Positions 926-64,000 of a DNA stretch of 64,000 nucleotides are shown in pieces. Positions within the stretch are counted from its first letter, which is position 1; the number at the start of each line of letters is the position of its first letter. The position numbers were made by a program, and so were the translations under genes. A model generated the notes under the pieces. That model was not told where the DNA came from and did not search any database. It saw only the letters and a list, made by a program, of their open reading frames with translations. Source of the DNA: Narcine bancroftii (lineage: Eukaryota); the NCBI RefSeq assembly GCF_036971445.1, contig NC_091476.1, positions 27,590,001 through 27,654,000 of the forward strand, written 5' to 3'.

Positions 926-34134
<33,209 letters not shown>

Positions 34135-43399: not shown

Positions 43400-44180
43400 T
43401 CCACTCCTCCTTAAACAGGTCCTCTGGTATCGGCCATTGCGCCCTGAGACAAAGAGACTTTTTGTCCACCTTTCCCACGTCTATCATAATCTAATACTAC
43501 GCCTCTATCAAGATGCTTCTCATTCTCCATCATTCTAAAGATGAGTCCATCTTTCTTCATAAGACACTTTCTCCAATCCAGGCAACATTCTGATAAATCT
43601 CCCCTGAACCCTCTCTAAAACTTCCACATCTTTCCAATCATAAGATGAACCAAATTGAACACAATAATCTAAGTGTGATCCAACCAGAGTTTTAGAGAGC
43701 TGCAATATTATCTTGCAGTTCTTCATCTTAATCCCTGGACTAATGAAGGCCAGCACATCATACACCTTCTTAACTGCCCTAAACAAGTTCGCACCAATCT
43801 TCAGAGATCCATGGACTTGGACCCCTCGATCCACACTGATTCTCCATACTGTTAAGAATCCTGCCATTAACCCTATACTCCATCTTAAAGATCAAGTTTC
43901 AAGTTCAACCTTCCAAAGTGCAACACTTCACGCTTTTCTAAATTGAATTCCATCTGCCACTTTTCTGCCGAACTCTCCATCCTGTCTATATCCTGCTGTA
44001 CTCCAAGACAACTTTCTACACTATCCACGACACCTTTTACCTTCATGTCATCTTCAAACTTACTGACTTACCCCTTCGTTTCTATAAATCAAAGAGCTAC
44101 AGTCACAGACGAATGCACGTAGAACAATTTCCATCTACAATCAACCTCTATCATCTTATGGGCAAGCTAATTCCGAATCA
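43400..44180 (-). mobile_element. Degenerate CR1 LINE
   Basis: HLDYCVQF...LERVQGRFIRMLPGL..SYEER. Confidence 0.88.
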
Positions 44181-46414
44181 AAATTCACATTATGTTTAAC
44201 AACTGAAAGAAAATGAGTGCAATATTTTCATATTTACTGAGCACAAAGGTTATTTGTAAAATGAGCTGATGTGAGAAGACTCAGCAAATGGCGATGGAAA
44301 GATTGTTTAAAACTGATGAAATTTAATGTTGCTGCAGAGGAAGCTTGGTGTGTTCATGCAAAACTCAAGATGAGACTTCATTAGGAAGGATGAAGCTGAT
44401 GACAGGGTGACAGTGGTAATGAAAAAGCCCAGGCTGGTAAAAAAAAATAACTAATCATAGTACTCTGGAGATGGAAAATTTGGATTTGAGGAAAGATATT
44501 TTTATGTATGTATATATTTTTTAAAATTTAAAAAGTCCAAGGAGAAAGTACAAATTTTGCATTTGATGGAATGGGAATGAATAAAGATTTTTAAAAAGTG
44601 CTGCTGTTAAAATTGTGCACAACTGCACACAATTTTGACATCACAGTTGTGTCCACATCCTCCTCCTGAAACACTGCTCTTAGTTTCTGTACCAACCTTC
44701 ATTCACATTTTAAATCCACATTTAAACGAGGCAGTTTTTTTTTAAAAAAAGTCTTAAATTCATGACAATTTTTAACTACCCTTTCACTGTCATGCACACT
44801 ACTTTTATAAATAATAAAAGTAAATAGCTTCAAATTCAAAGGGTTAGACTCCTCAATGACAAGCTCTGATTCCTCGCTAGAAAAAACACAATTGTATCAG
44901 CTGGGATTTTAACTGAATGAAAGAATGCATACAAGGAAACTCTTCAACCATGCTTGCTTTAGCTGTTGCTTAAAATGCATAACCAAATTGAAATTTTGTC
45001 ACTTACATATTTCTTGTATTTCACAGAAATAGCTTTAATCTTCATCCCAAGAGTTCCTTTATCAAAATTCATCTTACAATATAATTATACTTTACCAATT
45101 ACAAGATTCACTTCACTTTTACATAGTGCACTGTCCGGCATGAGAAGACCATCTTGTTTCAAGTTAAAATCCTGCCAGACTTAGTGTTCCACTTTTGGGT
45201 AATGATTATTTAACTATTGTGCAAAGTTAAGATGCTTAGTAAATGACTAGACTTTAACACCATCCACCTTAAATTTTGCACAATAGTTTACAATGCACCA
45301 TACTAATGGCTATCACAGTAATGTGACATTTTATACAATATCCAGACAGGTATGTTTCAAAAAAAAACCAAAGGATATTTATTGTCAGAGAACCTGCACA
45401 TCATATTTCTGCTCTGGAAACTAATCTCTGATATCAGAAATTAATCTTCGATATGAAATTTGTAACTGATACCATGGATTATAATGAATTTTAATTCTTC
45501 TAATTACAATAATCAAGTGGCTGTCTTCTGCAACATACAGCTTTAGGTCATGGTGATTACCAAAGTATCAAAGTGATAAAATGCCAGGGGAGGTTATAAT
45601 ATAAAACTTTGGAGAAAATAATTTCCCTTTGGTTTATTAACTTCCTCAGATCTTGAACTGAGATATGCAACTTGTTCTTAATCTTCTGTAAGAAGGGTCT
45701 ATAATAGAACGCAGGATAAAGAATAAAATTTCAGATATTTACGCTACCCATGACTTTTTAAACTCAATAATATTTCAAATGGAAATGGAAAACCAGAGAC
45801 CAGGCTGATGATGCAAACACTGCAATTAGCTAGTAATGAACTCCATGTAAGTATGAAGTATGACTTGGCATTCAAAACTGAACATCAGCTAAGGAAATAC
45901 AGCCAGTTTTGCAGCCATGCATTTATCACAACTAGACAATGAAGAGAGAATATTTTTTTTTAAGATATTCCTGCACCCTTGCTGAATTATAGCAGAGGCA
46001 ATCACTGACAAGGAACACCTGGAGAGTACAAAAGAGATTTTAATTTTTGCAAAAGGATATTTTCTTTTTAATTTCTCTGCTGTTTTATTAACTCAATTTG
46101 GGGTTAGAAGTAATCATTTTCAAATTGCTTCCTTTAATTGCATTTGGCTAGATAAAGAATTTCTGAATTTTCTATACACATTTATATAGTTAGTAGTTGG
46201 ATTTAAATTAATTAGATTTGAGGACATTATTACTAAAACACCTTTTCCCAAACCTTTGTCAATGTGCTGTTTAAAATCATGTTAGCAAGTTGTTCTGAAG
46301 ACAACATTCCATGTATTCCAGGCATGATACAGAACATTGCATAAAACAAGCAACGACATCTGCCGCACTGCATTCAGAAAATAGAGTCAAGCTCTGGCAC
46401 TGCAGCTAGAACAG

Positions 46415-46546
46415 TTACTTCCTCAACCAGAGCCAACTATTGACAAAACAGGTTCCAAAAATGATGGAATAGAGAAGAAATTCTTTCCGAGCATGATCCC
46501 GACTCTCCTGTTCCAATAGCTGTAGGCGGCGATTCAATTTGTTCAA
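46415..46546 (-). CDS. MFF-like terminal exon: coiled coil plus C-terminal transmembrane anchor (LNKLNRRLQLLEQESRDHARKEFLLYSIIFGTCFVNSWLWLRK*)
   Basis: Acceptor cttctctcttgcag; KLNRRLQLLE and NSWLW match the MFF C-terminus as recalled. Confidence 0.95.
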   Translation of the reverse strand: MNKLNRRLQLLEQESRDHARKEFLLYSIIFGTCFVNSWLWLRK

Positions 46547-49500
46547 CTGCAAGAGAGAAGGTTTGGACTATTCATTGAAAATTATTTTTCTTCTGATTTT
46601 CAATCTGTTGAAACGAATCATCTACCAGGAGAACATTTGCTTTGAAGTTGTAACAGGAGGTCTGAGTTTCCAATACCTTGAATATCTTCAGTTATGCAGG
46701 TTAAAGCAATGGTTCTCAGACTTTTTCTTTCCACTCACGTACCACTAAGTATTCCGTATGCCATAGGTTCTCCGTGATAAGTAAGGAATTGCTTAAGTTG
46801 GTATGTGAATGGGAAAATCACTATCAATCGTACCCAATTGCCTTGTTATGTGCACGATTTCATAACTCCAAAGGAAATAGGCCAATTACAATTTTTCTCA
46901 TGCAAAATATTTCAGTAACAATTGGGACTAGAGCAGTGATTCTCAACCTTCCCTTCCCACTCACATACCACCTTAAGCAATCCCTTACTAATTACAGTGT
47001 TCTGATGGCATAGGGATTATTTAAAGTGATATGTGAGTGGAAATAAAAAGGTTGAGAACCACTGAGTTAAAGTATTCTATGTAATGATATATGCTGGACA
47101 CATTATTGGCCAAATCATGCAAGGTTTGGAGTCACACTAATATTTTGAAAGGCCTCAGATTTGCAGCACCCTAAGAGAGGGTGAGCTGAAACCAGTCTCG
47201 AGGCCTGTCAAGTTGTTCAAGGTAACTTTCAGCACAGAAACAGGTTGCTCAGGCCATCACGTCCATGTCAACGAACTTCTCAGTGAGCTATTGCCATTTT
47301 CCTGCATTTGGCCTATATCCCTCTCAGCCTTTCCTGTCCAAATAGCTTTCTAAATAACAAACGTTTTAACTGTTTCCGCCCTCCTCAGCTTCCTCTGGCA
47401 GCTCATTCCATATGCACTCCATCCTCTTAAAAAAAAACTCTGGACCCTTACAAATCTTTCCCTCTCATTTTAAATCTATGCCCTCCAGTTCTGGACTCTC
47501 CTATCCTCGGGCAAAGATTGTAACCATTCACCTTATCTTTCATAACTAAAGCCTTCAGACCCAGTAATATCCTTGTGAATTTTTTCTGTATCCCTTCAGC
47601 TTGAAGTAACCAGAACTCTGTGTAAAGCACCAATATCTTGTCCAGTTAAAACATGAGCCCCAACTCCTGCGCTCAGTGATGGAGGCTAGTATGGTAAATA
47701 CAATCATCATTCTATCTATCTGTGCTGCTACTTCCAAGGAACTATGTACCTGTTCAGTCCTAATCTGCCCCTAATCAGTTCTTGGCTATCCTCCTTAACA
47801 CTTTCCTGAACCGTATTCACTTACTGTGCATGTCCTGCTTTGGCTTGACATTCCAAAATGCATCACCTCACATGTATCTGAGGAAAATTCTATCTGTCAT
47901 TCTTTGGTCCACTTTCCAAATTGATCAAGATGCTGTTGTAAACTTAAACAAACTTCTTCATTGCCATTGTGCCACCAATTTTGGAATCAACCACAAACTT
48001 ACTAACCATGTTGACTATATTGTCAGCCGTATCATTAATATAGATGACAAACACCAAGGGACCCAGCACAGATCCCTGGAGCATGCCATTGGTCAGTTCT
48101 CAAATCAGAAAAATTAACCCTCCACTACCACTCTCTGACTCTTTCCACCAAACCATTTTTTGAGCCAATTGGGTAGCTCATTCTGGATTTAACCTGGACT
48201 AGTCAACCATGTGGGACTTTTTCCCCAAAGTCTTTGCTAAAGTAAATAGAGACTACATCCACTCCCATGCCTTTCCCAATCTTCTTGGTGGACTTTTCAA
48301 AAAAGTTCCAAAAAAAAAATAAAATAAAATTGAGATATGCTTTCCCACTCTCAAAGCCATGGTGACTTTCCCTAACCACTCCATGCCTATCCAAATGATG
48401 GCACCCAGTCTCTCTAAATTTCCTCTGGTAACTATATTAATGATTTGGATGGCAATATAGTTAACACAATTAACAAATTTCCAAATGGCCCCTAACTTAC
48501 CGGTGTAGTGGACAGTTACGAAAGATAAAGTTTATAACAGGATCCATATATTTGGGAAAGTGGGCCAAGGATTAGCAAATAGAGACAAATAGGAGGTGTT
48601 GTACAGTGAAATAAAGAAAAATAAAACTGAGCTAAATTTACTTTTAGCATAATGAACTGTGACACAAAACTAAGAAGCCAACTGAGGAAATTAGAGAACA
48701 TCCCTAATGGTGAGTCCAAAGACAGAGGAAAAGACATATGCACCTCAATGCATCCTTCTGCAGGCTGATGTGGCAGCCATCCCTGTAAATATTCCTGACT
48801 GAAATTCTTACCTGTCGTCGCAGGGTTACAATTTCCATTACACTGAAATTTTCAAGTACACCCTCAGGTATAGTGTAATCAGGGGCCATGCTGGAAAAGA
48901 AAACAAAAAAACACACTAGCTTTTTTTTGTTCTTTTCCATGAACAATTGTAATACCTTAAATATTCATACTGAACAGACCACTTCAGATTTCAGTCATGG
49001 AGGATAACAGCAGCATCTTAATTCTAATGAAATCCACTACAACTTGCATCTTTCAATGACAACACACTTATGCTAGAGCATGAATGTACTGCCGTGGTTA
49101 TATTGCCAGGCAAGTTTGAATCCTATTATGGTTGTTGAGGAAAATACATTGTTAATGATCTGGAGTTGAGGTAATGATGATCACACAACTACCAGATAGT
49201 TTTATATATCTTCAGATTTTGCTTTGAAAGATAAAATTACTTGACCTCATCCCCATCGGTCTATCTGTTGAACCCTACAACAGCATTGTGGAAACAAAGT
49301 CACATCTTCACACTCAGGACACTGTTTATCACAATGTTCGGAATTCCAATCACTCTACACGAAAGGAGCGAAACACGAGTCTGTGGACACCATGATTGAA
49401 GCAAAAACAATGCTGGTGAAACTCAGCAGGTCAAACTGCATTTCATACAGCAAAGGTAAAGATACATAACCAAAGTTTTGGACTTCAATCCTTCATCAAG

Positions 49501-52500
49501 GTATGAGCAAAATTTTTGTTCAGGCGCCTGCCTATATTTTAATCAAACCTTGATGAAGGGCTCAAGCCCAAAATGTGAGCCATGCATCTTTCTCTTTGCT
49601 ATAATAAAGTATGCTGTTTGACCTGCTGAGTCTCTGCAGCATGCGTTTTTACATGCTAAATGTCATTTGCTGAACAGATCTGAAACTTCAAATCTGGACA
49701 TTGCTGAGGCCCTGTGGAAACCAAGCAACAGCAAAATTGTGCACCACTACTCTGTGCAACCATATGGGCTTGCATACACATCACTTTAATCCGACAGTCA
49801 AGCCACCATCAACTCTTGTTCACTGAGGAGTGCAAGAGCACATGCTGGGTGCAGCAGCAAGTGCCAACCTCATGCTGCAACATGGAATGATTTGTGTGGT
49901 AAACAGAAAAAGGTGGCACTTAAGCCATCTTGCATATAATAGATTGACCAAAGTTTTGTCATCTTGTCACATCTCCACAAATGAGGCCAACCTCCCCCCC
50001 CCCCCCACCCCCCCACCCCCGCTTGAGTTGGTCAGCAAAGTTTGAATGCATGGTGGGGACATGTGCGTCGGTCTCAGCCCTCGCCTCGCTGCCAGGCAGA
50101 ACCACTCGCCAGTGGCTGAGTCACTGCTTCCCCTCTGTGGGATGATTGCACAGAATTTGATATCATCAGCTGGTCGGCTCTGACCTGTGTGTCACTGTGA
50201 TACTGCAGTGAGTAGCCTGTTCTTGTATTTCATGCCACTGCTACAATAATGTGATTTATGTTAAGTATCTATTTGATGCAATTTTCCCCACCTCCTCTGT
50301 AATACATATACACACATTTGGTGTTTACAGTGGTGCCTGAGTTTTGTGAATAGAAAGTAAATAAGGGCATGCCACTGATGGAGCATCGTCATTAAGGAAA
50401 GAGGGCGAGGGTTGATGGCGCAGAGTGGGGGGGGGGGGGGGGTGGGGTGAGTTGTGCCAGTGTGCTTGATGCCTCCTGCTTCGCGTAGCGCTCTGATCTG
50501 CCTGGTGTCCAGACTGACAGAGAGGAGAAGAACAGCGGCTCCTGTCACTCTGCAGCCAGTCAGTTACTGTCAGAAGCTTGTTTGGGGAGCGGGACATGGA
50601 GCAGGCAGCCAGCCTTCACAACCATGCTGCTTACCAGGAACCGATTACCCTTTGGAGGGCCATTTATTCCACCTCCCCCCATCAAACAATCCGATCAACA
50701 ACCCATTACCTTGATTCCACCCCCCCCACCCACTTCCTCGTCCACTGACCTGCACAGATAGCAGCCACCCCCATCATGCCCCAAAAAGGTTTCCAAATGT
50801 AGCCAGCTTCCTTCTCTTGGCAGCTCCCTCCATACAACAATCCTCATAGAAGCCTGCTGTTCAGAGAGGAAAGTAAGCCTTGTCTGCTGATGCAGCTGGT
50901 GGAGGCAACGGGGAGCAGGCCGCCGCAGAGAGCTCCGCGCTCATCTCGACCATCCAGTGCCCACCCACTGGCAATGCTATTGCTCTGCTCAACATGGGAT
51001 GAATGGACAAAACAGCTGTCTTAGTCTTCCTTACCCATAATCCCCCTCACAGCTGGAAGTGCCAGGGAAACGCAAAGCGATTCCAGCTGTGAGGGAAATT
51101 GTAGACAAGGAAGACGGCCATTTTGCCAATTCATAATGCATTGTGCAAAGTGCCAGAGCAGCCCGATAAGATGCTGGCATGGAGCAGAGCTCCAGGGCAC
51201 TCGTGAGCCCTGGCAGCGCAGCACTGTACCCCTAGGATGGAGATTCAACATTGGGCTAGGTACTCGGATATTGGGTGGATGAGGAAAGGACAGTGCATAC
51301 CGGTTCTATACCCCACCTGCCATACTCTAGATATGCCCTTGCTAAAACAAAATAAGAACATTTGTACTACAGTGGGCAAAGTCACACCCAGAACTCAGTA
51401 AAGACTTTGAGGCTACAGTAGGCTGGTGCAACCGTTTCATGAACAGAAAAATATGGTATTACACCAAAAAACAAAAATTGCACAGAAACTACAAAAGGAT
51501 CATGATTGTAAAGTTTATTTTATGTAACCATCAGAAAAACAAGTTTGCATTGGCAAATATCGGAAACATGGTGAAACCCCCGTGAATTTTGATATGATAG
51601 GCAATAGAATAATAGAATGGAAGGTTGTTAAAACTGTGCAAACCAGAAGTATAGGCCATGAAAAGACCAGGTTTACTGTGGTGTTATCAGGCATGGCCAA
51701 CAGGATGAAGCTAAGATCTATGGTAATCTTCAAACACAAAATTAAACCTAAAATAAAATTCCCTGCAGGTATTTTTTGTACATTTTTCATGAAAAAGGAT
51801 GGACAAATGAAAACTATGGAGAGACAATGTGTGGAACAGGTGGCTAGGGGGTTTTACGCAAAGAACGGTTTGCTGGTCTTGGATAGGTTTCATAGTCACT
51901 TAACTAAGACAACCAAAAGTAAATTAGCACTGCATAATACTTGCATGACGGTTATCCGGGTGGTTTGACATCTCTATTACAACCTCTCAATATCTGCTTG
52001 AACAAGCCATTCAAACAAAGTCCATGTGTGCAAGGGATGGAATACATGGATATTGAGTGCAGAAAAGTTGTTTACAAAAGGCGTGGCAGTGTGCGCTGCA
52101 TCACTTGATGTGCTGTGTAACTTCACGCTCAAGGCATGGGACAAAGTTAATGTAAAGACTGATAAAAATCTGTGTGTTGTTTTCAGACAATGATTGTGAT
52201 TTTGAAGGGTTCTAATTGTGTTGTTGTTTTCAATAAAAATCTCAATGAAAATCTGTTGCAGTTGTTTTGTTTTTGGATTTTCAAGGGCCGTCTTATACGC
52301 CGGATCGGCGTGGNNNNNNNNNNNNNNNNNNNNNNNNNNNNNNNNNNNNNNNNNNNNNNNNNNNNNNNNNNNNNNNNNNNNNNNNNNNNNNNNNNNNNNN
52401 NNNNNNNNNNNNNNNNNNNNNNNNNNNNNNNNNNNNNNNNNNNNNNNNNNNNNNNNNNNNNNNNNNNNNNNNNNNNNNNNNNNNNNNNNNNNNNNNNNNN

Positions 52501-55500
52501 NNNNNNNNNNNNNNNNNNNNNNNNNNNNNNNNNNNNNNNNNNNNNNNNNNNNNNNNNNNNNNNNNNNNNNNNNNNNNNNNNNNNNNNNNNNNNNNNNNNN
52601 NNNNNNNNNNNNNNNNNNNNNNNNNNNNNNNNNNNNNNNNNNNNNNNNNNNNNNNNNNNNNNNNNNNNNNNNNNNNNNNNNNNNNNNNNNNNNNNNNNNN
52701 NNNNNNNNNNNNNNNNNNNNNNNNNNNNNNNNNNNNNNNNNNNNNNNNNNNNNNNNNNNNNNNNNNNNNNNNNNNNNNNNNNNNNNNNNNNNNNNNNNNN
52801 NNNNNNNNNNNNNNNNNNNNNNNNTCATTGTTCCTGCAACTCCCTGTCTGAACCTTTCCAATTCTCCACAACACTACATCACTGACTCAGAATTAGCCAA
52901 GTCACTGGCTACCACAACCTTCAACAAAACAACCAGTTCTCAGCACTCTTCCTTACCTAGCTGCAGTATTGACCTTGGCTCACTGCAAGCAACTCACTGG
53001 ACTCAGGACTACTTGGTCTTTGCTACCCTCATCAGCATTCCCCTCCCCAACTCTCAGGTTCCTGTGGTTGGGTCAACTGAACATTTCTGGAAGTATTAGA
53101 CACTCACAAAAAGTTTTTTTTAAATATTTTGCTCCACATGAAACAATTAAAATCCATTTACACATCATAAATCAATGTAAATATTTATAACTTGGAATAA
53201 ATAAAACTACTCATCTTTCTCCTGCTGATGGATGCGTCACATTCATTTGAATGGAGCATGCAATGCTTAAGCCAGGTTTAACCAAATGCTGGCTCAGAAG
53301 GCCTGATCTAAAGTTTGAGTGCTGGGAAGAGACTATAATCCTGTTGCTTCATTAGACCATGAGGAGTTCATTGGAAAAGCATGGGGATTGCTGCAGTTGA
53401 GAGTAGTGGGGTAGAAGAAGGCTACACCATTTGCTTAGGCAGCTCATAGATTTTTTTAAAAGAGCATCAAGAATAGAAGCACAGGGAATGCCTAAAGTCA
53501 TAACGTAAAGGTGGGAAGAAAAGATTAATAGAAGGTCTAAGAACATGGTCACAGAAGCAGGTTTTTTGAAATTGAAAAACAATTTATCAGAGAGGAAACT
53601 TCTGCAAGAATACTCCAGATTCATAGCTTGATGTGTCAAGCATGTGCGCCTGAAACTGGGACTGACCTCACAACGTAGCTGGGAGTTCAAAGTATGGTGA
53701 CAATAGGTGGGGGCATAGTGCAGTAAACCTGTGGAGAAAATGTAAACAAGCTTATGAAATAAAAAGGCTATTGAGTTCAGGAAATGGAGACAAAAGATCT
53801 CTTTATTCAAAGCTTATTCTTGTAGAAGTTTCCTCTCTGATAAATTGTTTTTCAATTTCAACATATGTATTTAGAAAATAGCTTTAATTTTTTATCATTT
53901 ATGTTCCTTAAAACAAGTGGTTATGTACATTTTCACTTTCCTTTCAGTCACTGAAATGATTCTTCAAATATCCACAGAAATTTCCAGATTGAATTAAACC
54001 CAGCATTTTAGATTAATCTGGATGCATGCAAGTGCTGTATCTACATAAAGCAGCTTAATTGGTGTACAATTCTGGAAACTAAAGTTCTCAAACACAAGAA
54101 TAAAATGATTAGCATTAAGTGAATTTATCAAGAAAGAAAATAAGCCAAGCACCTTTGATTCCTTGTTTGATTAGGCACATCTAAGTGTGGGCTGCCAGAA
54201 AGGGGCTGATTACGGAACCGATTTCTGAAAGTGGAAAACAAATTAAATGTCTACACAAATATTTTTTAATCACAGTACTTTACATAGGACAAGATCATAG
54301 AATTTAATTATTTCTCCAAATTTTAATTCAATGTTTTTATAAGTATTCTTCACTGGTACAAATTATTCGCCAAGCAGAAATGTTAGCAAAGCAGTTTCTC
54401 TGATATCTTGGAATTTTATATTTTTGCATTCAAAGCAAAGGGAATCTGTAATTTTCCTCGAAAGCAACGCAGTATTTACATTTTTGGATATCTCTCAATC
54501 ACTCATACTATTTTGGGAAGAAAATCCCTCTTCCCTCCCCATTTTCCCCAGTAGATGTGCAAATTCTGTAAGGGAAGTTAATCACAATTCAGCACAGCAG
54601 GACTGAACACAAATGCAAAAAAAAAAACTTTTCCACATTTATATTATTGCTTATATGAGTCTCATGACATTCTACTGTTGGAAAATAAATCAGCTGAAAA
54701 TGTAAAATTTAGAGTGAAAAAGTATTGACAAGTAATATGTGCCAGTACAAAGAACAGACAGCATTATTTAGACGAGACGATTATATTTGGCACAAAATAC
54801 TGATTTTGTTTCTCCAGACTCTATCTCATTTGTCCACCATGTTGTTTTATGGCTAAATCAAAATGGATCCAGTGAAAAAATAAAGCAGATTTGTTTTTGT
54901 GATTTGCATTGGAGGCATTAAATTATTTTGCTTCAACACACCTGACTTCAGCAGAGAGAATTCAGACAGTGTATGGCTTTTAGGCTTCCCCTACTTTTGT
55001 TCAAAGTTTATCTAGATCATGTTAGCTGAAAAGTATACTTTTACAAATTTCAACAAATTATCAAATCAGCTCATTTTTTCCCCAAACATCATTACTTATA
55101 AAACACTAAAAATTGGCAATTCACCTGTTAAAAAGTCATCCTGATAACTATAAAGAGGCTGTTATCCAAACATATGGACAATTACTGTCCATAGGTTAGA
55201 TGAAAATCAAAGAATTAGCTGTTGGTAGGATTTTTTTTTTTAAAGAATAAACCAAGAGGCCTGTTATGGAAGAGCATTGAATCGCTCTTCCAGTTATCTC
55301 TGGCGCCTGATGCCAATTCAAACTAGCCACATGTGCTGATCAATCGTGTATCTGTGAAGATGTTAATGTCATCTATGTACAGGGAGACTTTGCCTAGCGA
55401 AGTCACCTCTCTTATACCCTCATGCTTCCTGATGGATTTAGATAAAGCTCTATGCAGCATGTAAACCACAGGCAACCCTGCCTGAATCCAGACTTTTGGG

Positions 55501-58500
55501 GAAGCTATCGGTTTCTCACTCATTAATTTGAGCTGCACTATAATGTCCATGTGGAGCAGTTGAATCTAATTTCTGGTTCCCATTTTGGAGAGCACACCCA
55601 TCATGAAGGCCTTGTCCTAGCAGTAGTAGTTTATTTATATAGCGCATTTAACACAATGCACGTTGATCTAAAATGCTGAACATACAATTAGGAATAAATT
55701 GGTTACTATCTAAACGATGACAGGCAGCCAAAATACACCAGCATGGGTATCTTTTTACATACACTATCCAACTTAGAACATTAACTATTTAAACGTAACC
55801 CGTTTCTCCAGATCCCAGCAATGAACAGCTTCTCAGTTTCAAATGAACAACAGTGCTACAAAGCCCAGACTTTAAAGAACAAGCAGTGAACACAAATAAG
55901 CCCGGTGGCAATTCCATTTGGTGTAACAAAAAGTCCAACTGCAGCCATCTCAGGGCTGGTTTACCAGCATCGGCAGGCCTTTCAGCTTCAAAAGGGAAAC
56001 TACCAACCAAGTCACAGTTTCTCAAGGCGGCAGAGCAACAGTTCACCTCAAAGCCCCCCGACCTCGGACAATCTGATAGCCTTGAGGCCTCGCGCCTCAG
56101 GTTGACATCGACCATGAACAACATATCCTTCGGAATTTCTCAGGACTAACATTGTTCCACTGCTTTGGTCATATCAGGACACCACCTCTGAATCTGCCAC
56201 ATTGCACCATTTCCACGACCATCAAAGCAGGCAGCACTGGAAGGTCGAGGCCACATACCATGCAATCCCGCAGCTCAGTCTCTTCGTTAGGCCTCACTCC
56301 ATGACCATTGAGTTCAAATCTTGTGGCTTCATCTCAGCGACCCACTCATTGCGTTTCTCCAAAAACTCTTGTCAAATCCAGGTTTGTGCATGGCGTGTCT
56401 ACTTGTTAGTTACAGCAGTCCTGGGATCCAGAGCAGCTGGCTGCTGCGACCACAGTCGCGCTGCCATCTTGCAATGCTACAAGCTCGCACCTGGCCATTC
56501 ACATTCCAGTACTACACATAGGTGATGATATCTTTAATAGTGCAAGGAGGTCAAAGATTCTTCTGCCAGCAATAACACAGGTTTGGTTTGGGTCGATCAT
56601 CTGTCCCAGAGCAGATTTGACTTGATTGCTGATGGCCTTTGACAGGATTTTGTAATCAACATTTAACAATGAAGTGGATTTCCAATTCCTGATATTCTCT
56701 TTCTCCCCATTCAGCTTGTAGTTGAGGAGGAGGAGGATGATGCCCTTCCTAATGGAATCGGACATGCTGCCAGCCAGAAGCATAGAGCTGTACACTTCCA
56801 ACAGGTCAGGGTGCATCCCAGTCCCATAGAGCCATATTCAACACAGTCAGTAAGCAGTCATTTTCGCCTCAAAGGAATAGGTGGACCCATTCAGCTCATC
56901 CAATCAGTGGCTTACAGGCATAAAAGGGTCGACTGATCCTCAGTATGTCTGTCCATGAGGATGTTACCGTCCATTTCTCTCCACTCACTCACTGAAGCCC
57001 TCCAGCTTGTCATTATTTGCTCAAGATTCCAGCATCTGCAGTTCCTGAGTTGGTCAGTTTCATTAACTAATGCATAGATATTTGATAGGATACATATTTT
57101 AAAAGATGACTAGGGCTGATAAGATCAATGAGTAAAAAAGAAACATACTATGTTTATCTAGTTCTTGCGATCCAAAAAATTGTCACAAAATAAAAACACT
57201 TCTTGGGGATTATCATTTACTTAAATAGAAAATATTGGTTACTGAAGATATGAATACTTAATAACAGCAGTATGGTTAGCTTTTTTTCCCCCATACGAAA
57301 CATTCATGAAGTGCACATTTTCTGTGAATTAACAAACAAAATATTGATTGCAGGAAAAAAACAATCAGATGCATAAGTAGTTACTGGAAGACAGTTAACA
57401 TCTAATGATGCAGCTCAGAGGGCTTAATTACAGAAAGTTAGCAGGACATCAACAACATTTTAAAGCTGCACAAGCCAGTTCTGATCACCTGCTTCCCATT
57501 TTCTGATGGAGTGATTCCATTAAGTGCTCGAACAATTTGCGTCCAGCATAACTTAATACATCACGCACATAATAAAATGAAAATAGAGCCTGGCCAGGTC
57601 CAGGTGAAGGGAAGGGAAGCTTTGGAACATTGGAGTGATGATTCCTACAATTTAGATAGAAGCATAGCATTGTTAAAGTAAATGATTCACAAGAGTTCAA
57701 ATAATCTGCAATAATTTTGGTTACAGGAACAATTTCAGGAATGAAATGCATAAACATTAGTCATGAGATACTTAAAAACAAATCCCAGCACAGGAAATGC
57801 CAATCAACCCATTCAATCATTTCCTTCTCTACTATTCTCACTTTTTAATCTTGCATGGTCCGAGCACAGAAATGAAGATCTTAAGTCTTAAAGGAAATAG
57901 TTGCTTAGTGTTCAGTTAACATCTTCAAAGACCTTCGATATCTAGTTGGATAAATAGTTATGGGGCATTTATGATTCTGCTCAAAACAATCTTAAGTCCA
58001 TCGACGTTTACCAGCAGTAGAAAGAAGAGTGCAAATTCGTTAAAGCTTATCCAATGTTGATTTAAAATAAAACTTTACCAATGAAAATTCTACTGAGTCC
58101 AGGAGGTGATCATGAATGATATGGGGGGGGGGGGCTTTGTAGTACACATCACAGCAAGAAATGAGTCTGGGTACACTTCAGATAACCGCCTGTCAATGCT
58201 TGTGCACTGAAATCTCAGGGTAGTGATGCCATCCATGTACTCTGACTATAAATCTGATATCTAACACTGGCATTTTACATACCATATATTTTAGCACACA
58301 AGTGGAGTCTTGAAACACTCAAAAACCACTCAAAAATTAGGGGTCGACTTGCATGCCAGATACAAAAATGAGACCTTAAATTCAACTCAAGAAACAGCTT
58401 GATGTAGATTTAGCATACAAGGTGAAATAAAACACCAAAAAAGAACCCAACCTTCATACTTTCATTGTTTTGGTGGAAGTTCTATGATAACAATCACCTT

Positions 58501-59968
58501 CCAGCAACACCTAACAGCTCAATCGAGGCAATTCTTTGGGGGGTGGGGCCAACATACGCCAGATATATGATAAAACCATGAAAATGGGGACCTGACTTAT
58601 CTGAAATAGAGAGTACTTTTTTTGGTAGAGTTTTTAATTAAAGACTCACATGCAGTAGACATTAGTTGGCAACATGTGTTTGAAAATCTTGGAGCAGTGG
58701 ACTGGATTTGTTGTCATCAATGAAGCTATTGTGTTCCCCACTGCCCTCAGAGAAACTTGCACACAGAAACCTGGCAATCTGTCATGTGCCTTGATCAGAG
58801 ATTGACATTTTGATGTCTTTTTCTCGCTCTCTGAACATCACTATCAATATTCCAAAATCCATATAAATCAGTCGCTCTTGAATGTTGTGTTTTCAGATGC
58901 CCTAAACAATCATTCGTTAAGATTTTGTGTGATCTTTTTATTTACCCACAACCAAAACCAAGATCAAGCTCAGTTTTCTTATTTGTGATTCAGATATTTT
59001 TTTTCTTGAAACAGCAATGTACTGAAGTACATTACTTGCATCATTGAAGGGATACAGTCTGACAACGTTTACTCCATGGGAATAAGACATGCATAAGCCA
59101 CTTAAAAACTTAAACTCTAGACTTAAGATTATAATATCACTAACTTTTAAAAAAAGTATCAAATTTTACACTGCCCAATACTTCCTCAAGTAACTAAAGT
59201 CTATCTCAGTAATTTAAAATTACATCATGTGAAGGAGTTTGGTCACAACAAACTAATGAATGTAAAATATTCAACTTACAAATTCCTCTGTCTTCTGGCC
59301 ACATTTGATAGGCAGATTTCATTCTCACTTAATGTTCGTGATCTACTGGAATTCTGAGAGGTGTTCATCTTTAAAAAAAAAATGCTTTTTAAACTGGTTT
59401 CTAACTGAGGAGTTAGATTCAAAAGTAGACACTTTAATTAGCAGACAAATTCGGGCCTTCTCAATGATGACCTTGTGGTAAGGTTGGATATTTGAAAATC
59501 TAGATAAATATTAAATGGAATAAATTATTAATTTTGGAAGTTGAGTGGACAATTTCCTGAAGTTAAACTGTTTAAAAGATGTGTCAATGTTTAATTTATG
59601 AATAATCACAGAATCTCTCATTTCAATCCAGTGAAATGCACCTCAAAAGCCTTAAAGTGCTTTCGGATGTCCCATAATTGTGTAAGACTCGATAGAAATG
59701 CAACATTTATTTTTAAACCACTTTCCTTCTTTGTAAAGATTTTTAAATGTATGCTACTTAAATATATAATCTCTATATTATAAAAGGACATAATTTTAGT
59801 CATAATGTACCTGGAGTGGACTCTCAGATCTCTCCACATTCATAGACTGGGAAGCTCCAAACATTAAATGAGGAGAGCTGCTAAGTGGTGGAGGATCAGT
59901 ATTCAAGGGATGATTCTGGAACCAACCATACAAGTATGGCCTTGCTCCAATATCCTGCATTTCTGTTT
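46415..59968 (-). CDS. MFF/FATE1-family tail-anchored protein (divergent mitochondrial fission factor paralog); 5'-partial, five coding exons
   Basis: Exons 59968-59811, 59368-59280, 57644-57489, 48890-48812 and 46546-46415 splice in frame (phases 1-0-2-2-0). They end in LRRQ|LNKLNRRLQLLEQE...YSIIFGTCFVNSWLWLRK*, the MFF coiled-coil plus TM signature. Confidence 0.9.
47230..48425 (-). mobile_element. Degenerate CR1 LINE
   Basis: SHHGF..GK, IQKKFTRILLGL and RTGGHRFKMRG remnants. Confidence 0.82.
48812..48890 (-). CDS. MFF-like penultimate exon (MAPDYTIPEGVLENFSVMEIVTLRRQ)
   Basis: Strong acceptor ttttcttttccag; donor CAG|gtaaga; ends at LRRQ in phase 0. Confidence 0.92.
49375..49650. mobile_element. 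Penelope-derived inverted-repeat element; relatives at about 9270-9455, 12500-12715, 26090-26205, 40430-40605 and 41410-41630
   Basis: actcagcaggtcaaac...ccttcatcaagg mirrored by ccttgatgaaggg...tttgacctgctgagt; family assignment is from recall. Confidence 0.55.
51300..52313 (+). mobile_element. pogo-family (POGK-like) DDE transposase remnant, frameshifted
   Basis: ATVGWCNRFM, HGETP..FDM, GHEKTRFTVVL, LLVLDRFHSHL and LQPLNICLNKPFK motifs. Confidence 0.85.
52314..52824. other. Assembly gap (511 N)
   Basis: Run of N. Confidence 0.99.
55300..56900 (-). mobile_element. Tx1/L1-type RT remnant interrupted by an L2-like LINE 3' portion (about 55622-56500)
   Basis: NWKSTSLLNVDYKILSKAI..DPNQTC at 56499-56816 and VSLYIDDI at about 55370; the insert has an L2-type 3' end (tttatttatatagcgc on +). 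Confidence 0.7.
57489..57644 (-). CDS. MFF-like symmetric 156-nt exon (NHHSNVPKLPFPSPGPGQALFSFYYVRDVLSYAGRKLFEHLMESLHQKMGS)
   Basis: ttgtag| acceptor, AG|gtgatc donor, phase 2-2; Pro-rich segment then an amphipathic helix, like an MFF cassette exon. Confidence 0.78.
59280..59368 (-). CDS. MFF-like 89-nt exon (MNTSQNSSRSRTLSENEICLSNVARRQRN)
   Basis: tttaaag| acceptor, TT|gtaagt donor; RSRTLSEN aligns with MFF RERSMSEN. Confidence 0.85.
59811..59968 (-). CDS. MFF-like 158-nt exon (TEMQDIGARPYLYGWFQNHPLNTDPPPLSSSPHLMFGASQSMNVERSESPLQ)
   Basis: ttttctctttag| acceptor, CAG|gtacat donor, phase 1-0, open frame; GC-richer than its flanks. Confidence 0.78.
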
Positions 59969-60841
59969 CTAAAGAGAAAAGTATATTTCCTTAAACCCAA
60001 CTAACAAATATTGCAATGTTAAATAATTTGATGCTATTAATGTACCTGAGTATTTATAGCTCTACAAATTAAAAATTCATGTACTGCATTTCTATTGCAA
60101 TTCAAAGTGTCAAAAATATTAAACAAGAGCATTACTTCATACATGTTCTTTCTAAGCCAGAGTGGAATTTTTTTTAAATGTTCCTACCAATCGGCACAAT
60201 TACCTTAAACTTCAATAAATATTTAATGCCCCTCATAAATCTCACTGCAATAGATTGTATCATAAAAATCACGTAAAGCAATTTACACCATCAAATCTAC
60301 TAATATATGGAATCACTAAAATCTTAAGAATATAGATATTTGCATATTCTTTAATCATTCATCTTTTGTAAAGTACAATTTTTTTTCAACCCAACATCAG
60401 AAATCATGGTCCATCATGTTAAAATCTTAAAATCAAATACATTTATACAGTACTTTTCATAACTTCAAGATATTCCAAGGTCCTTTACAAGCAATCGTGG
60501 TGAAGTATAATCCCTGTTGCAATGCAGCTAATTTGCTTACACCAAGGTCAACACATGTTAATGTGAATATGAATAAATCATTTGGTTTTTTTTTTAAATT
60601 CAGAAAAATGAAGATATCCGAAACAAATCAGAAATGCTAATTTATTTAAAATTTTTCAGGGTTGAACTGACCTCACAGATTGGATAAAAAAAAATTCACC
60701 TAACATGAAATTAGAACAATTGTCCTCGTTTCAGGTAAATCCCTCCCTTCTCTCTTTCCCTTCGCCTGTTGACTTTTCCCACGCAAACTGTGTCGCCCAA
60801 CCTCAGTCAGAAGAATCTCTTGTCCCGTGTCATCAAGGAGA

Positions 60842-63800
60842 GGGGCAGGAGCAGGACCTCGGGCTCCCGGGGCAGGAGCAGGACCTCGGGCTCCCGGGGC
60901 AGGAGCAGGACCTCGGGCTCCCGGGGCAGGAGCAGGACCTCGGGCTCCCGGGGCAGGAGCAGGACCTCGGGCTCCCGGGGCAGGAGCAGGACCTCGGGCT
61001 CCCGGGGCAGGAGCAGGACCTCGGGCTCCCGGGGCAGGAGCAGGACCTCGGGCTCCCGGGGCAGGAGCAGGACCTCGGGCTCCCGGGGCAGGAGCAGGAC
61101 CTCGGGCTCCCGGGGCAGGAGCAGGACCTCGGGCTCCCGGGGCAGGAGCAGGACCTCGGGCTCCCGGGGCAGGAGCAGGACCTCGGGCTCCCGGGGCAGG
61201 AGCAGGACCTCGGGCTCCCGGGGCAGGAGCAGGACCTCGGGCTCCCGGGGCAGGAGCAGGACCTCGGGCTCCCGGGGCAGGAGCAGGACCTCGGGCTCCC
61301 GGGGCAGGAGCAGGACCTCGGGCTCCCGGGGCAGGAGCAGGACCTCGGGCTCCCGGGGCAGGAGCAGGACCTCGGGCTCCCGGGGCAGGAGCAGGACCTC
61401 GGGCTCCCGGGGCAGGAGCAGGACCTCGGGCTCCCGGGGCAGGAGCAGGACCTCGGGCTCCCGGGGCAGGAGCAGGACCTCGGGCTCCCGGGGCAGGAGC
61501 AGGACCTCGGGCTCCCGGGGCAGGAGCAGGACCTCGGGCTCCCGGGGCAGGAGCAGGACCTCGGGCTCCCGGGGCAGGAGCAGGACCTCGGGCTCCCGGG
61601 GCAGGAGCAGGACCTCGGGCTCCCGGGGCAGGAGCAGGACCTCGGGCTCCCGGGGCAGGAGCAGGACCTCGGGCTCCCGGGGCAGGAGCAGGACCTCGGG
61701 CTCCCGGGGCAGGAGCAGGACCTCGGGCTCCCGGGGCAGGAGCAGGACCTCGGGCTCCCGGGGCAGGAGCAGGACCTCGGGCTCCCGGGGCAGGAGCAGG
61801 ACCTCGGGCTCCCGGGGCAGGAGCAGGACCTCGGGCTCCCGGGGCAGGAGCAGGACCTCGGGCTCCCGGGGCAGGAGCAGGACCTCGGGCTCCCGGGGCA
61901 GGAGCAGGACCTCGGGCTCCCGGGGCAGGAGCAGGACCTCGGGCTCCCGGGGCAGGAGCAGGACCTCGGGCTCCCGGGGCAGGAGCAGGACCTCGGGCTC
62001 CCGGGGCAGGAGCAGGACCTCGGGCTCCCGGGGCAGGAGCAGGACCTCGGGCTCCCGGGGCAGGAGCAGGACCTCGGGCTCCCGGGGCAGGAGCAGGACC
62101 TCGGGCTCCCGGGGCAGGAGCAGGACCTCGGGCTCCCGGGGCAGGAGCAGGACCTCGGGCTCCCGGGGCAGGAGCAGGACCTCGGGCTCCCGGGGCAGGA
62201 GCAGGACCTCGGGCTCCCGGGGCAGGAGCAGGACCTCGGGCTCCCGGGGCAGGAGCAGGACCTCGGGCTCCCGGGGCAGGAGCAGGACCTCGGGCTCCCG
62301 GGGCAGGAGCAGGACCTCGGGCTCCCGGGGCAGGAGCAGGACCTCGGGCTCCCGGGGCAGGAGCAGGACCTCGGGCTCCCGGGGCAGGAGCAGGACCTCG
62401 GGCTCCCGGGGCAGGAGCAGGACCTCGGGCTCCCGGGGCAGGAGCAGGACCTCGGGCTCCCGGGGCAGGAGCAGGACCTCGGGCTCCCGGGGCAGGAGCA
62501 GGACCTCGGGCTCCCGGGGCAGGAGCAGGACCTCGGGCTCCCGGGGCAGGAGCAGGACCTCGGGCTCCCGGGGCAGGAGCAGGACCTCGGGCTCCCGGGG
62601 CAGGAGCAGGACCTCGGGCTCCCGGGGCAGGAGCAGGACCTCGGGCTCCCGGGGCAGGAGCAGGACCTCGGGCTCCCGGGGCAGGAGCAGGACCTCGGGC
62701 TCCCGGGGCAGGAGCAGGACCTCGGGCTCCCGGGGCAGGAGCAGGACCTCGGGCTCCCGGGGCAGGAGCAGGACCTCGGGCTCCCGGGGCAGGAGCAGGA
62801 CCTCGGGCTCCCGGGGCAGGAGCAGGACCTCGGGCTCCCGGGGCAGGAGCAGGACCTCGGGCTCCCGGGGCAGGAGCAGGACCTCGGGCTCCCGGGGCAG
62901 GAGCAGGACCTCGGGCTCCCGGGGCAGGAGCAGGACCTCGGGCTCCCGGGGCAGGAGCAGGACCTCGGGCTCCCGGGGCAGGAGCAGGACCTCGGGCTCC
63001 CGGGGCAGGAGCAGGACCTCGGGCTCCCGGGGCAGGAGCAGGACCTCGGGCTCCCGGGGCAGGAGCAGGACCTCGGGCTCCCGGGGCAGGAGCAGGACCT
63101 CGGGCTCCCGGGGCAGGAGCAGGACCTCGGGCTCCCGGGGCAGGAGCAGGACCTCGGGCTCCCGGGGCAGGAGCAGGACCTCGGGCTCCCGGGGCAGGAG
63201 CAGGACCTCGGGCTCCCGGGGCAGGAGCAGGACCTCGGGCTCCCGGGGCAGGAGCAGGACCTCGGGCTCCCGGGGCAGGAGCAGGACCTCGGGCTCCCGG
63301 GGCAGGAGCAGGACCTCGGGCTCCCGGGGCAGGAGCAGGACCTCGGGCTCCCGGGGCAGGAGCAGGACCTCGGGCTCCCGGGGCAGGAGCAGGACCTCGG
63401 GCTCCCGGGGCAGGAGCAGGACCTCGGGCTCCCGGGGCAGGAGCAGGACCTCGGGCTCCCGGGGCAGGAGCAGGACCTCGGGCTCCCGGGGCAGGAGCAG
63501 GACCTCGGGCTCCCGGGGCAGGAGCAGGACCTCGGGCTCCCGGGGCAGGAGCAGGACCTCGGGCTCCCGGGGCAGGAGCAGGACCTCGGGCTCCCGGGGC
63601 AGGAGCAGGACCTCGGGCTCCCGGGGCAGGAGCAGGACCTCGGGCTCCCGGGGCAGGAGCAGGACCTCGGGCTCCCGGGGCAGGAGCAGGACCTCGGGCT
63701 CCCGGGGCAGGAGCAGGACCTCGGGCTCCCGGGGCAGGAGCAGGACCTCGGGCTCCCGGGGCAGGAGCAGGACCTCGGGCTCCCGGGGCAGGAGCAGGAC

Positions 63801-64000
63801 CTCGGGCTCCCGGGGCAGGAGCAGGACCTCGGGCTCCCGGGGCAGGAGCAGGACCTCGGGCTCCCGGGGCAGGAGCAGGACCTCGGGCTCCCGGGGCAGG
63901 AGCAGGACCTCGGGCTCCCGGGGCAGGAGCAGGACCTCGGGCTCCCGGGGCAGGAGCAGGACCTCGGGCTCCCGGGGCAGGAGCAGGACCTCGGGCTCCC
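60842..64000 (+). repeat. 27-bp GC-rich minisatellite (GGGGCAGGAGCAGGACCTCGGGCTCCC)n, about 117 apparently identical copies, running off the window
   Basis: Directly visible; 21/27 GC; two CpG per unit. Confidence 0.99.

Follow-up and report, generated by a model that had tools for sequence, protein, structure and literature searches.

Background

The closest described relatives of the gene treated here are the Drp1 adaptor MFF and the mammalian protein FATE1. In Mff, the motifs R1 and R2 constitute the minimal Drp1-binding region, and deletion of a further motif, R3, abolished the binding of full-length Drp1 in yeast two-hybrid assay (both in the accessible part of PMC4666140). Human FATE1, as described in the available portion of bioRxiv 2025.08.18.670752, is located on mitochondria and ER, promotes hyperfusion, is restricted to testis and does not recruit Drp1; it is devoid of R1, and this absence was linked there to the failed recruitment. 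Zhang et al. 2010 assigned FATE1 to branch 5, younger than the divergence of opossum, which means eutherian origin, and it was placed in mammalian strata (PMC10380301). FATE1, MFF and PRRG3 do not appear in the available part of the text supplement of an ohnolog paper (PMC4504502) or in the accessible main texts of PMC9803222 and PMC6778780; a "fate1" match in a newt paper (PMC7096497) was spurious.

The pair GPR50/Mel1c offers an instructive parallel. According to the available part of PMC2323367, a fast-evolving X-linked gene thought to be eutherian-only was recognised from synteny as orthologous to a gene conserved outside mammals, in a block that includes CD99L2. This pair belongs to an unrelated protein family, and in that case intermediate species were examined.

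We describe a gene on chromosome C17 of the ray Narcine bancroftii. Our overall reading, which we consider probable, is that it represents a seven-exon, full-length paralog of MFF, likely born in an early-vertebrate duplication, likely orthologous to FATE1 and predicted to encode a second tail-anchored Drp1 adaptor.

Gene structure and transcripts

The gene has seven coding exons on the minus strand and an open frame of 295 aa without internal stops. Plain positions below refer to the window, the 64,000-nucleotide stretch that was analysed; two features beyond its edge are given by their C17 coordinates.

G000:C17:27695211-27697810, same strand as the paralog: PRRG3-type transmembrane Gla gene, next gene upstream
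G000:C17:27660538-27660739, minus, 6.5 kb past the window edge: coding exon 1, 202 nt, with start codon, R1 and R2
59969..64000, minus: in-window part of intron 1, leading to coding exon 1
60842..64000, no strand: tandem array of a perfect 27-bp GC-rich unit in intron 1, 117 copies in the window, 260 in total
59811..59968, minus: coding exon 2, 158 nt, phase 1 to 0; exon 2-3 joint in 4/4 runs
59280..59368, minus: coding exon 3, 89 nt, phase 0 to 2, from homology and contig joints
57489..57644, minus: coding exon 4 (cassette), 156 nt, phase 2 to 2
54153..54224, minus: coding exon 5, 72 nt, phase 2 to 2
48812..48890, minus: coding exon 6, 79 nt, phase 2 to 0; predicted coiled coil begins here
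46415..46546, minus: coding exon 7, 132 nt including stop; predicted coiled coil, transmembrane segment, RK tail
43570..46414, minus: 3´ UTR, observed to 46000; far end approximate, inferred from X1 contig
2177..34134 (approximate), plus: SYTL4, downstream neighbour, tail to tail; zinc-finger and C2 exons

An earlier sequence-only reading had proposed five minus-strand exons, not listed singly, spliced in frame into about 203 aa. Minus-strand exons with AG/GT ends indeed lie at 59968-59811, 57644-57489, 54224-54153, 48890-48812 and 46546-46415, and both quoted exon motifs are present. The product itself does not hold: the five-exon chain closest to this size (597 nt) has stops in all three frames, because phase 0 at the end of the 59968 exon meets phase 2 at the start of the 57644 exon. 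The missed 89-nt exon 59368-59280 restores the frame; by homology and RNA joints it also displaced other candidates for a phase 0-2 exon between exons 2 and 4. Exon 1 shows 100% tblastn identity to residues 1-67 of the database protein P0001 and matches Miff with E 2.2e-7, and the loose end of an X2 contig at 59970 corresponds to the 3´ end of this exon.

The expectation of a spliced transcript was borne out by contigs of four runs (X1-X4) of one study, whose RNA status is guessed, none being on record as RNA. These RNA-like contigs carry GT-AG joints where predicted, covering each of the five junctions of the 295-aa form that fall inside the window. Inclusion of exon 4 is documented by the exon 4-5 joint in four of the four runs and by the exon 3-4 joint in three, its skipping by the joint 54224-59280, again in three. 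Exon 6 is joined to exon 7 in all four runs, and its joint to exon 5 is listed in three. The 3´ UTR is based on record 1 of X1 (3006 letters), letters 31-577 of which lie on 46546-46000. Contig depth varies among the runs and is highest in X2; depth is no measure of expression.

Depending on exon 4, the products are 295 or 243 aa long. Because the shorter form is identical to P0001, a Narcine bancroftii entry with the name "mitochondrial fission factor-like isoform X4", the gene cannot be called hidden, as had been claimed; it is an already annotated, unstudied family member. That the C17 locus is a real, expressed MFF paralog is virtually certain.

Comparison with MFF

Only two loci in the genome encode Miff proteins, one on C17 and one on C21 (six Miff matches in all). 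The separate, conserved MFF sought by the sequence-only reading is the C21 gene, which is 90% identical to Mobula MFF, 66% to mouse MFF and 31% to the C17 paralog. It begins about 17 kb past a collagen IV C4 domain, much as human MFF follows COL4A3. The C17 gene neither groups with MFF proteins nor adjoins COL4A3, unlike the C21 gene, and is not an MFF ortholog.

The two genes nevertheless share their architecture: seven coding exons, R1 and R2, a cassette central exon, coiled coil, C-terminal anchor and basic tail. Their intron phases agree in 6/6 cases, in keeping with the previously noted match of exon phases; the chance of such agreement is about 0.0014, assuming uniform and independent phases. 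Exon lengths are 202/158/89/156/72/79/132 in the paralog versus 211/164/89/165/63/85/132 in MFF. The paralog differs in chromosome and neighbours, in strong divergence of exons 2-6 and in its separate side of the tree, and an R3-like motif is not readily recognisable in it. Exon 2, which presumably harbors R3 in MFF, has 9/53 residues in common with MFF; exon 1, the second most MFF-like exon, has 22/67. The exon 3 motif RSRTLSEN aligns with RERSLSEN of MFF.

P0001 matches Pfam PF05644 (Miff) with 95.6 bits against a cut-off of 23. Exon 7 alone reaches 43.1 bits (E 5.6e-11), so its reported MFF-likeness stands. Exon 1 encodes both R1 (MRIPNRLKV) and R2 (MQIPERI), which were found in 11/11 paralog and 8/8 MFF rows examined. 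The protein is a complete paralog of MFF architecture with R1 and R2, and not a partial intermediate, whereas the earlier reading had seen in it a bridge between MFF and FATE1. A C-terminal coiled coil is predicted by homology. It is followed, as anticipated, by a single hydrophobic anchor (hydropathy 1.58) and a short basic tail, RK. The transmembrane segments of paralogs are somewhat more hydrophobic than those of MFF (1.58-2.19 versus 1.35-1.65), and two diagnostic columns (A/C versus F/W) set the paralog apart. In ESM Atlas, the C-terminus falls in generic Mff clusters only (best 0.89), and a PDB search with the paralog profile gave 0 matches. Complex prediction for the coiled-coil/anchor segments of paralog and MFF, run without alignments, scored 0.05, a value that we place on neither side of the argument.

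Distribution and phylogeny

Members of the paralog group are known from sharks, rays, chimaera and ray-finned fishes. In a tree of 34 proteins, the 15 rows of MFF and the 19 of the paralog fall on separate sides with 100/100 support, although it is unrooted, contains neither FATE1 nor an outgroup and raised a long-branch warning. Cartilaginous and ray-finned fishes are present on both sides, which agrees with the proposed ancient origin of the paralog. Seven diagnostic columns unite shark and ray-finned paralogs against nine uniting shark paralog and MFF, and exon 7 is nearer to the ray's own MFF; the unity of the paralog group therefore rests partly on parsimony.

Among the 120 matches listed out of 1156, and among the 60 of a second search, none is named as a paralog from a lobe-finned fish or tetrapod; searches of this word-based type are bound to overlook relatives that evolve fast. 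A metagenome scan for host DNA returned 97 pattern matches and no relatives. Database entries with the automatic names "mitochondrial fission factor-like" or "homolog A/B-like" represent this gene and its apparent orthologs; they come from sharks, rays, chimaera, bichir, sturgeon, bowfin and teleosts. The listed names contain no link to FATE1; curated orthology databases may already provide one.

Chromosomal context and relation to FATE1

The stop codon of the upstream Gla gene lies 34,472 bases from the start codon of the paralog. The names PRRG3/PRRG1, SYTL5, TMEM47 and those of the COL4A subtypes follow position rather than named matches, and an ESM Atlas search gave the Gla gene no name. 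For the Gla, SYTL and TMEM47-like neighbours alike, the nearest paralog is found on C16. This set matches the human Xp block TMEM47-PRRG1-SYTL5, and the C17 Gla gene therefore represents the PRRG3 side. A search for LANC_like (the PRRG1-LANCL3 anchor) gave eight matches, all of them on C1 or C9 and not on C16, and does not bear on this assignment. The TMEM47-like gene near the paralog has no known human counterpart.

FATE1 is located on the plus strand in human, as is PRRG3. The human X carries PRRG3 (150.86 Mb), FATE1 (150.88) and CNGA2 (150.90) in consecutive rows of the accessible part of the PMC4696107 supplement (Xq28). The paralog, too, immediately follows a PRRG3-type gene of the same orientation, the name PRRG3 being assigned as above. 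At its other flank CNGA2 was not found; the place is taken by SYTL4 (best PDB match synaptotagmin-like protein 4, E 1.6e-22; Pfam FYVE_2 and C2), so the Gla gene is the only immediate neighbour common to the paralog and human FATE1. The nearest CLZ-bearing CNGA gene is 29 Mb off on C17 and VMA21 10 Mb off. C17, a carrier of genes from the X-conserved region, also holds CSTF2, SYTL4, a PHKA gene, VMA21 with a PAS gene 150 kb from it, a CD99L2-family gene and a collagen IV pair. Collagen IV pairs are three, on C16, C17 and C21; MFF on C21 and its paralog on C17 thus lie on paralogous chromosomes, as genome-duplication ohnologs should.

On the strength of the PRRG3-type neighbour, directly upstream and on the same strand, we regard the C17 paralog as likely orthologous to FATE1. 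This rests on synteny and parsimony, the paralogs compared being those of cartilaginous and ray-finned fishes. The orthology proposed by the sequence-only reading is thus retained on another footing, since this neighbour lies beyond the window. SYTL4, whose X linkage had been invoked, lends little weight, being 51 Mb apart from FATE1 on the human X; the noted likeness of the penultimate-exon motif to human FATE1 is a putative one. Besides being the genome's second Miff gene, the ray paralog has in common with FATE1, as far as the latter's available description reaches, a C-terminal coiled coil and anchor. It differs in retaining R1, in its length of 243-295 aa, much above that of FATE1, and in being spliced in 4/4 samples. 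FATE1 comprises 183 aa.

Proposed function and history

We lean slightly towards recruitment of Drp1 by the paralog, judging from MFF biology. The tail would insert in the mitochondrial outer membrane, and perhaps in that of peroxisomes as well; the coiled coil would oligomerise, and R1 and R2 would bind the Drp1 stalk. Because exon 2, the likely site of R3 in MFF, has diverged, the binding would probably be weaker than in MFF or be regulated differently. In the lineage leading to placental mammals, the gene would have kept its adjacency to PRRG3, lost R1 and the central sequence, and become testis-restricted as the pro-fusion FATE1. In this full form, with FATE1 as an approximately 450-million-year-old MFF ohnolog which is a complete second Drp1 adaptor in fishes and was converted in placental mammals by loss of R1 and central exons into a testis-restricted pro-fusion factor, the scenario is quite possible and stays tentative.

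The same origin and orthology are compatible with a fish protein that is already FATE1-like, with no productive Drp1 recruitment, acting as a fission damper or ER-mitochondria spacer, perhaps through titration of Drp1 or through coiled coils shared with MFF. The diverged exon 2 (9/53) would suit this, as would the altered, more hydrophobic transmembrane segment, which could shift targeting toward ER, and the dual location and hyperfusion reported for human FATE1 in the accessible part of its description. We find it unlikely, since R1 is retained in all 11 paralogs examined and exon 1 is MFF-like.

Two other histories depart from this origin. The old paralog might have been lost in tetrapods or early mammals, FATE1 being a separate later MFF duplicate of the eutherian ancestor. 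The lack of tetrapod members among the matches listed (120 of 1156; 60) and the branch 5 dating of Zhang et al. 2010 would fit. Losses do occur in this block, if the TMEM47-like gene indeed lacks a human counterpart. The new copy would, however, have to land beside PRRG3, in exactly the place of the old paralog; the searches are of a kind that overlooks fast-evolving relatives; and GPR50, in the available account of PMC2323367, turned out to be an old ortholog by synteny. We therefore rate a separate origin of FATE1 as quite improbable. Hardly tenable is a recent, lineage-specific or decaying MFF duplicate, or the genome's only MFF. Exon 7 is admittedly 58% identical to the ray's own MFF (25/43, versus 20/43 to the paddlefish paralog), yet the whole paralog is 65% identical to its chimaera counterpart versus 31% to its own MFF, and the separate C21 gene, open frame, splicing and tree split refute this reading.

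Reassignment of FATE1 to an early-vertebrate MFF duplicate is a worthwhile evolutionary point. Should the two genes prove orthologous, the age of FATE1, so far dated to the eutherian ancestor, would reach back to the jawed vertebrates, and the fish protein would represent a natural intermediate between a fission adaptor and a fusion-promoting, apoptosis-blocking cancer antigen, in which loss of R1, divergence of R3 and changes of the anchor could be swapped singly. Fish models may also carry an overlooked third Mff-type protein; a zebrafish peroxisome inventory, in its accessible part, names only Mffa and Mffb (PMC8919083).

Structure and splicing of the MFF paralog

The seven-exon minus-strand gene that meets SYTL4 tail to tail is a real, spliced, ancient and full-length paralog of MFF, annotated as MFF-like. 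The sequence-only reading had assembled five exons in frame into about 203 aa. Its five exon-like segments are present, and the last of them is the only one with a Pfam match, to the MFF family Miff (PF05644) as that reading expected. Their direct join (597 nt), however, contains stops in all three frames, because phase 0 at the end of the first segment does not fit phase 2 at the start of the second. Homologs reveal two further exons.

Exons of the paralog (window positions)
6.5 kb past the window end, added first exon, 202 nt, revealed by homologs
59968-59811, minus strand, exon-like segment, exon 2, ends in phase 0
59368-59280, minus strand, added exon, 89 nt, revealed by homologs
57644-57489, minus strand, exon-like segment, exon 4, starts in phase 2
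54224-54153, minus strand, exon-like segment
48890-48812, minus strand, exon-like segment
46546-46415, minus strand, exon-like segment, last exon, Miff match (E 5.6e-11)

With exon lengths of 202/158/89/156/72/79/132, the complete gene spans 888 coding nt (295 aa) free of internal stops. Omission of exon 4 leaves 243 aa identical to P0001, a database isoform named "mitochondrial fission factor-like isoform X4" of Narcine bancroftii; the gene is therefore already annotated, contrary to the supposition that it was hidden.

The stretch is present in four sequencing runs of one study, which are presumed to be RNA and whose contig depth is no measure of expression. Their contigs carry GT-AG joints at the predicted sites between exons 2-3, 4-5 and 6-7 (4/4 runs each) and between exons 3-4 and 5-6 (3/4 each). 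Skipping of exon 4 (joint 3-5) is seen in 3/4 runs, and no joint of exon 2 to exon 4 occurs among the 15 joints listed of 60. A contig of run X2 has a loose end at 59970 that matches the 3´ end of exon 1.

Intron 1 contains a GC-rich 27-bp unit, open in six frames, with 260/260 copies identical, which occupies 60842-64000 and about 3.9 kb past the window. This is either a very young minisatellite or an array smoothed by assembly.

Relationship to MFF

The window gene is a paralog distinct from MFF. Six Miff matches in the genome fall at two loci, the paralog on chromosome C17 and a seven-exon gene of 302 aa on C21. The latter is 90% identical to Mobula MFF, 66% to mouse MFF and 31% to the window gene, which bears out the expectation of a separate MFF in this genome. 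A collagen IV C4 domain lies about 17 kb ahead of its start, just as human MFF follows COL4A3. Its exon lengths are 211/164/89/165/63/85/132, and because all six intron phases equal those of the paralog, we infer that the paralog arose by DNA duplication and not by retroposition.

A profile built from nine cartilaginous-fish paralogs matched 1156 proteins; the 120 listed comprise 26 cartilaginous-fish or unnamed paralog rows, two paralogs from sturgeon and paddlefish, and 92 that are named MFF or unnamed. The sturgeon/paddlefish profile gave 60 proteins (45 named ray-finned, 4 unnamed, 11 cartilaginous-fish), none of them named as lobe-finned fish or tetrapod; both searches require exact shared words, and fast-evolving relatives escape them. 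For the tree, 32 database rows were hand-picked from 168 for taxon spread and joined by both genes of the ray genome. In this unrooted tree, which carries a long-branch warning, 15 MFF rows separate from 19 paralog rows at 100/100, in agreement with the proposed antiquity of the paralog, and both sides include cartilaginous and ray-finned fishes. Seven diagnostic columns unite shark and ray-finned paralogs against MFF, whereas nine unite shark paralog and MFF against ray-finned paralogs. On these counts, one origin for all paralogs is the most economical interpretation but falls short of proof.

Genomic neighbourhood and probable FATE1 orthology

One of 15 matches in a Gla search falls 37 kb upstream of exon 1 of the paralog, on the same strand. 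In its last exon, this Gla gene codes for a membrane-spanning segment and a pair of PPxY motifs, the anatomy of a PRRG protein. Between the two, visual inspection of the long open frames on the minus strand and of the 150 best-ranked out of 267 exon candidates showed no other gene; for the initial 13 kb of the gap, this inspection covered the long minus-strand frames alone. The local order on C17 is CSTF2, TYW2/TRMT12 gene, SYTL4, paralog, Gla gene, PLA2G12 gene, a gene we take to be TMEM47-like, and PHKA gene; of 15 exons submitted to Pfam, 11 had matches below E 0.001.

The Gla, SYTL and TMEM47-like genes each have their best paralog on C16, at 51.0, 31.4 and 51.6 Mb respectively, and this C16 trio corresponds to human TMEM47, PRRG1 and SYTL5 on Xp (34.6-37.9 Mb). 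C17 also has CSTF2, VMA21 and a CD99L2-family gene, which tie it to a block other than the Xp one; the C17 Gla gene is therefore read as PRRG3. The human PRRG3 sequence would agree with this reading. On the human X, the gene table of PMC4696107 places PRRG3, FATE1 and CNGA2 consecutively at 150.86, 150.88 and 150.90 Mb, and SYTL4 at 99.9 Mb. Distances on C17 speak against a simple synteny match, with 10 Mb to VMA21 and a PAS gene and 29 Mb to a CNGA gene. Three collagen IV pairs, on C16, C17 and C21, fit an ohnolog origin of the paralog and MFF.

On synteny and gene-count parsimony, the paralog is likely the FATE1 ortholog, as the sequence-only reading had proposed. In the data of Zhang et al. 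2010 (PMC2950125), ENSG00000147378 (FATE1) stands on branch 5 and ENSG00000130032 (PRRG3) on branch 0, branches 5-7 being younger than the opossum split; PMC10380301 places FATE1 among mammalian-human strata. GPR50/Mel1c (PMC2323367) is a precedent, a fast-evolving X-linked gene of mammals that synteny revealed as an old ortholog. Among 20 papers on FATE1 with Mff none is evolutionary, judged by title, and among six listed for FATE1, PRRG3 and CNGA2 none covers FATE1 and PRRG3 together. In this survey of the literature, as distinct from orthology databases, passages from two of 11 papers on FATE1 orthologs, testis and X chromosome yielded no non-mammalian FATE1.

Several further features were observed around the gene. 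An exon of the TMEM47-like gene (G000:C17:27757461-27757598; L039, L041) is 49% identical to that of its C16 paralog; the gene is apparently an ohnolog that is not known to have a human counterpart. A group XII secretory phospholipase A2 gene (C17 ~27.735-27.740 Mb, L037) adjoins the PRRG3-type gene. The TYW2/TRMT12 gene between CSTF2 and SYTL4 (~27.53-27.56 Mb, L030-L032) is multi-exon, and since human TRMT12 is intronless and on chromosome 8, the C17 locus is suggested as the ancestral site. At 4187-4459, where the SYTL4 region has an open frame, a 42-bp unit is repeated in tandem (6.5 copies); a second tandem repeat, with a 118-bp unit in 5 copies, occupies 31096-31682. In the gap between paralog and Gla gene (C17 ~27.664-27.674 Mb, L011), inspection by eye showed two LINE-type elements whose long frames resemble reverse transcriptase.

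Drp1 motifs and putative function

R1 and R2, short MFF motifs linked to Drp1 binding, are found in 11/11 paralogs and 8/8 MFFs examined. According to PMC4666140, these two repeats make up the smallest part of Mff that binds Drp1, and in yeast two-hybrid assays full-length Drp1 no longer bound once R3 was deleted. Across all three groups 33 columns are conserved, 12 of them in exon 1, and exon 2 has 9 of 53 residues in common between paralog and MFF; R3 is likely located there. Human FATE1, according to a preprint (bioRxiv 10.1101/2025.08.18.670752), has an R2-like motif as its sole remaining repeat and fails to recruit Drp1; it is found at both mitochondria and ER, and acts through Mfn2 to promote hyperfusion. 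The fish paralogs examined, in contrast, retain both R1 and R2. With these motifs kept, exon 2 diverged and Drp1 recruitment missing from human FATE1, the fish protein would be a tail-anchored, oligomeric Drp1 adaptor, probably a weaker one, from which FATE1 behaviour may have been derived later. We lean towards the adaptor role, as likely but unproven.

Two side observations concern the products of the gene. The six-residue alternative last exon of isoform P0025 maps to 20633 on the minus strand, 28 kb downstream and antisense inside the SYTL4 span; such an end would deprive the protein of its anchor and of most of its coiled coil, with a soluble R1/R2 protein as predicted outcome. Exon 3 (59280-59368) contains a basic RxxS kinase-type motif, kept in MFF and cartilaginous-fish paralogs and present as LRRSxS in ray-finned paralogs, which resembles the AMPK site region of MFF.
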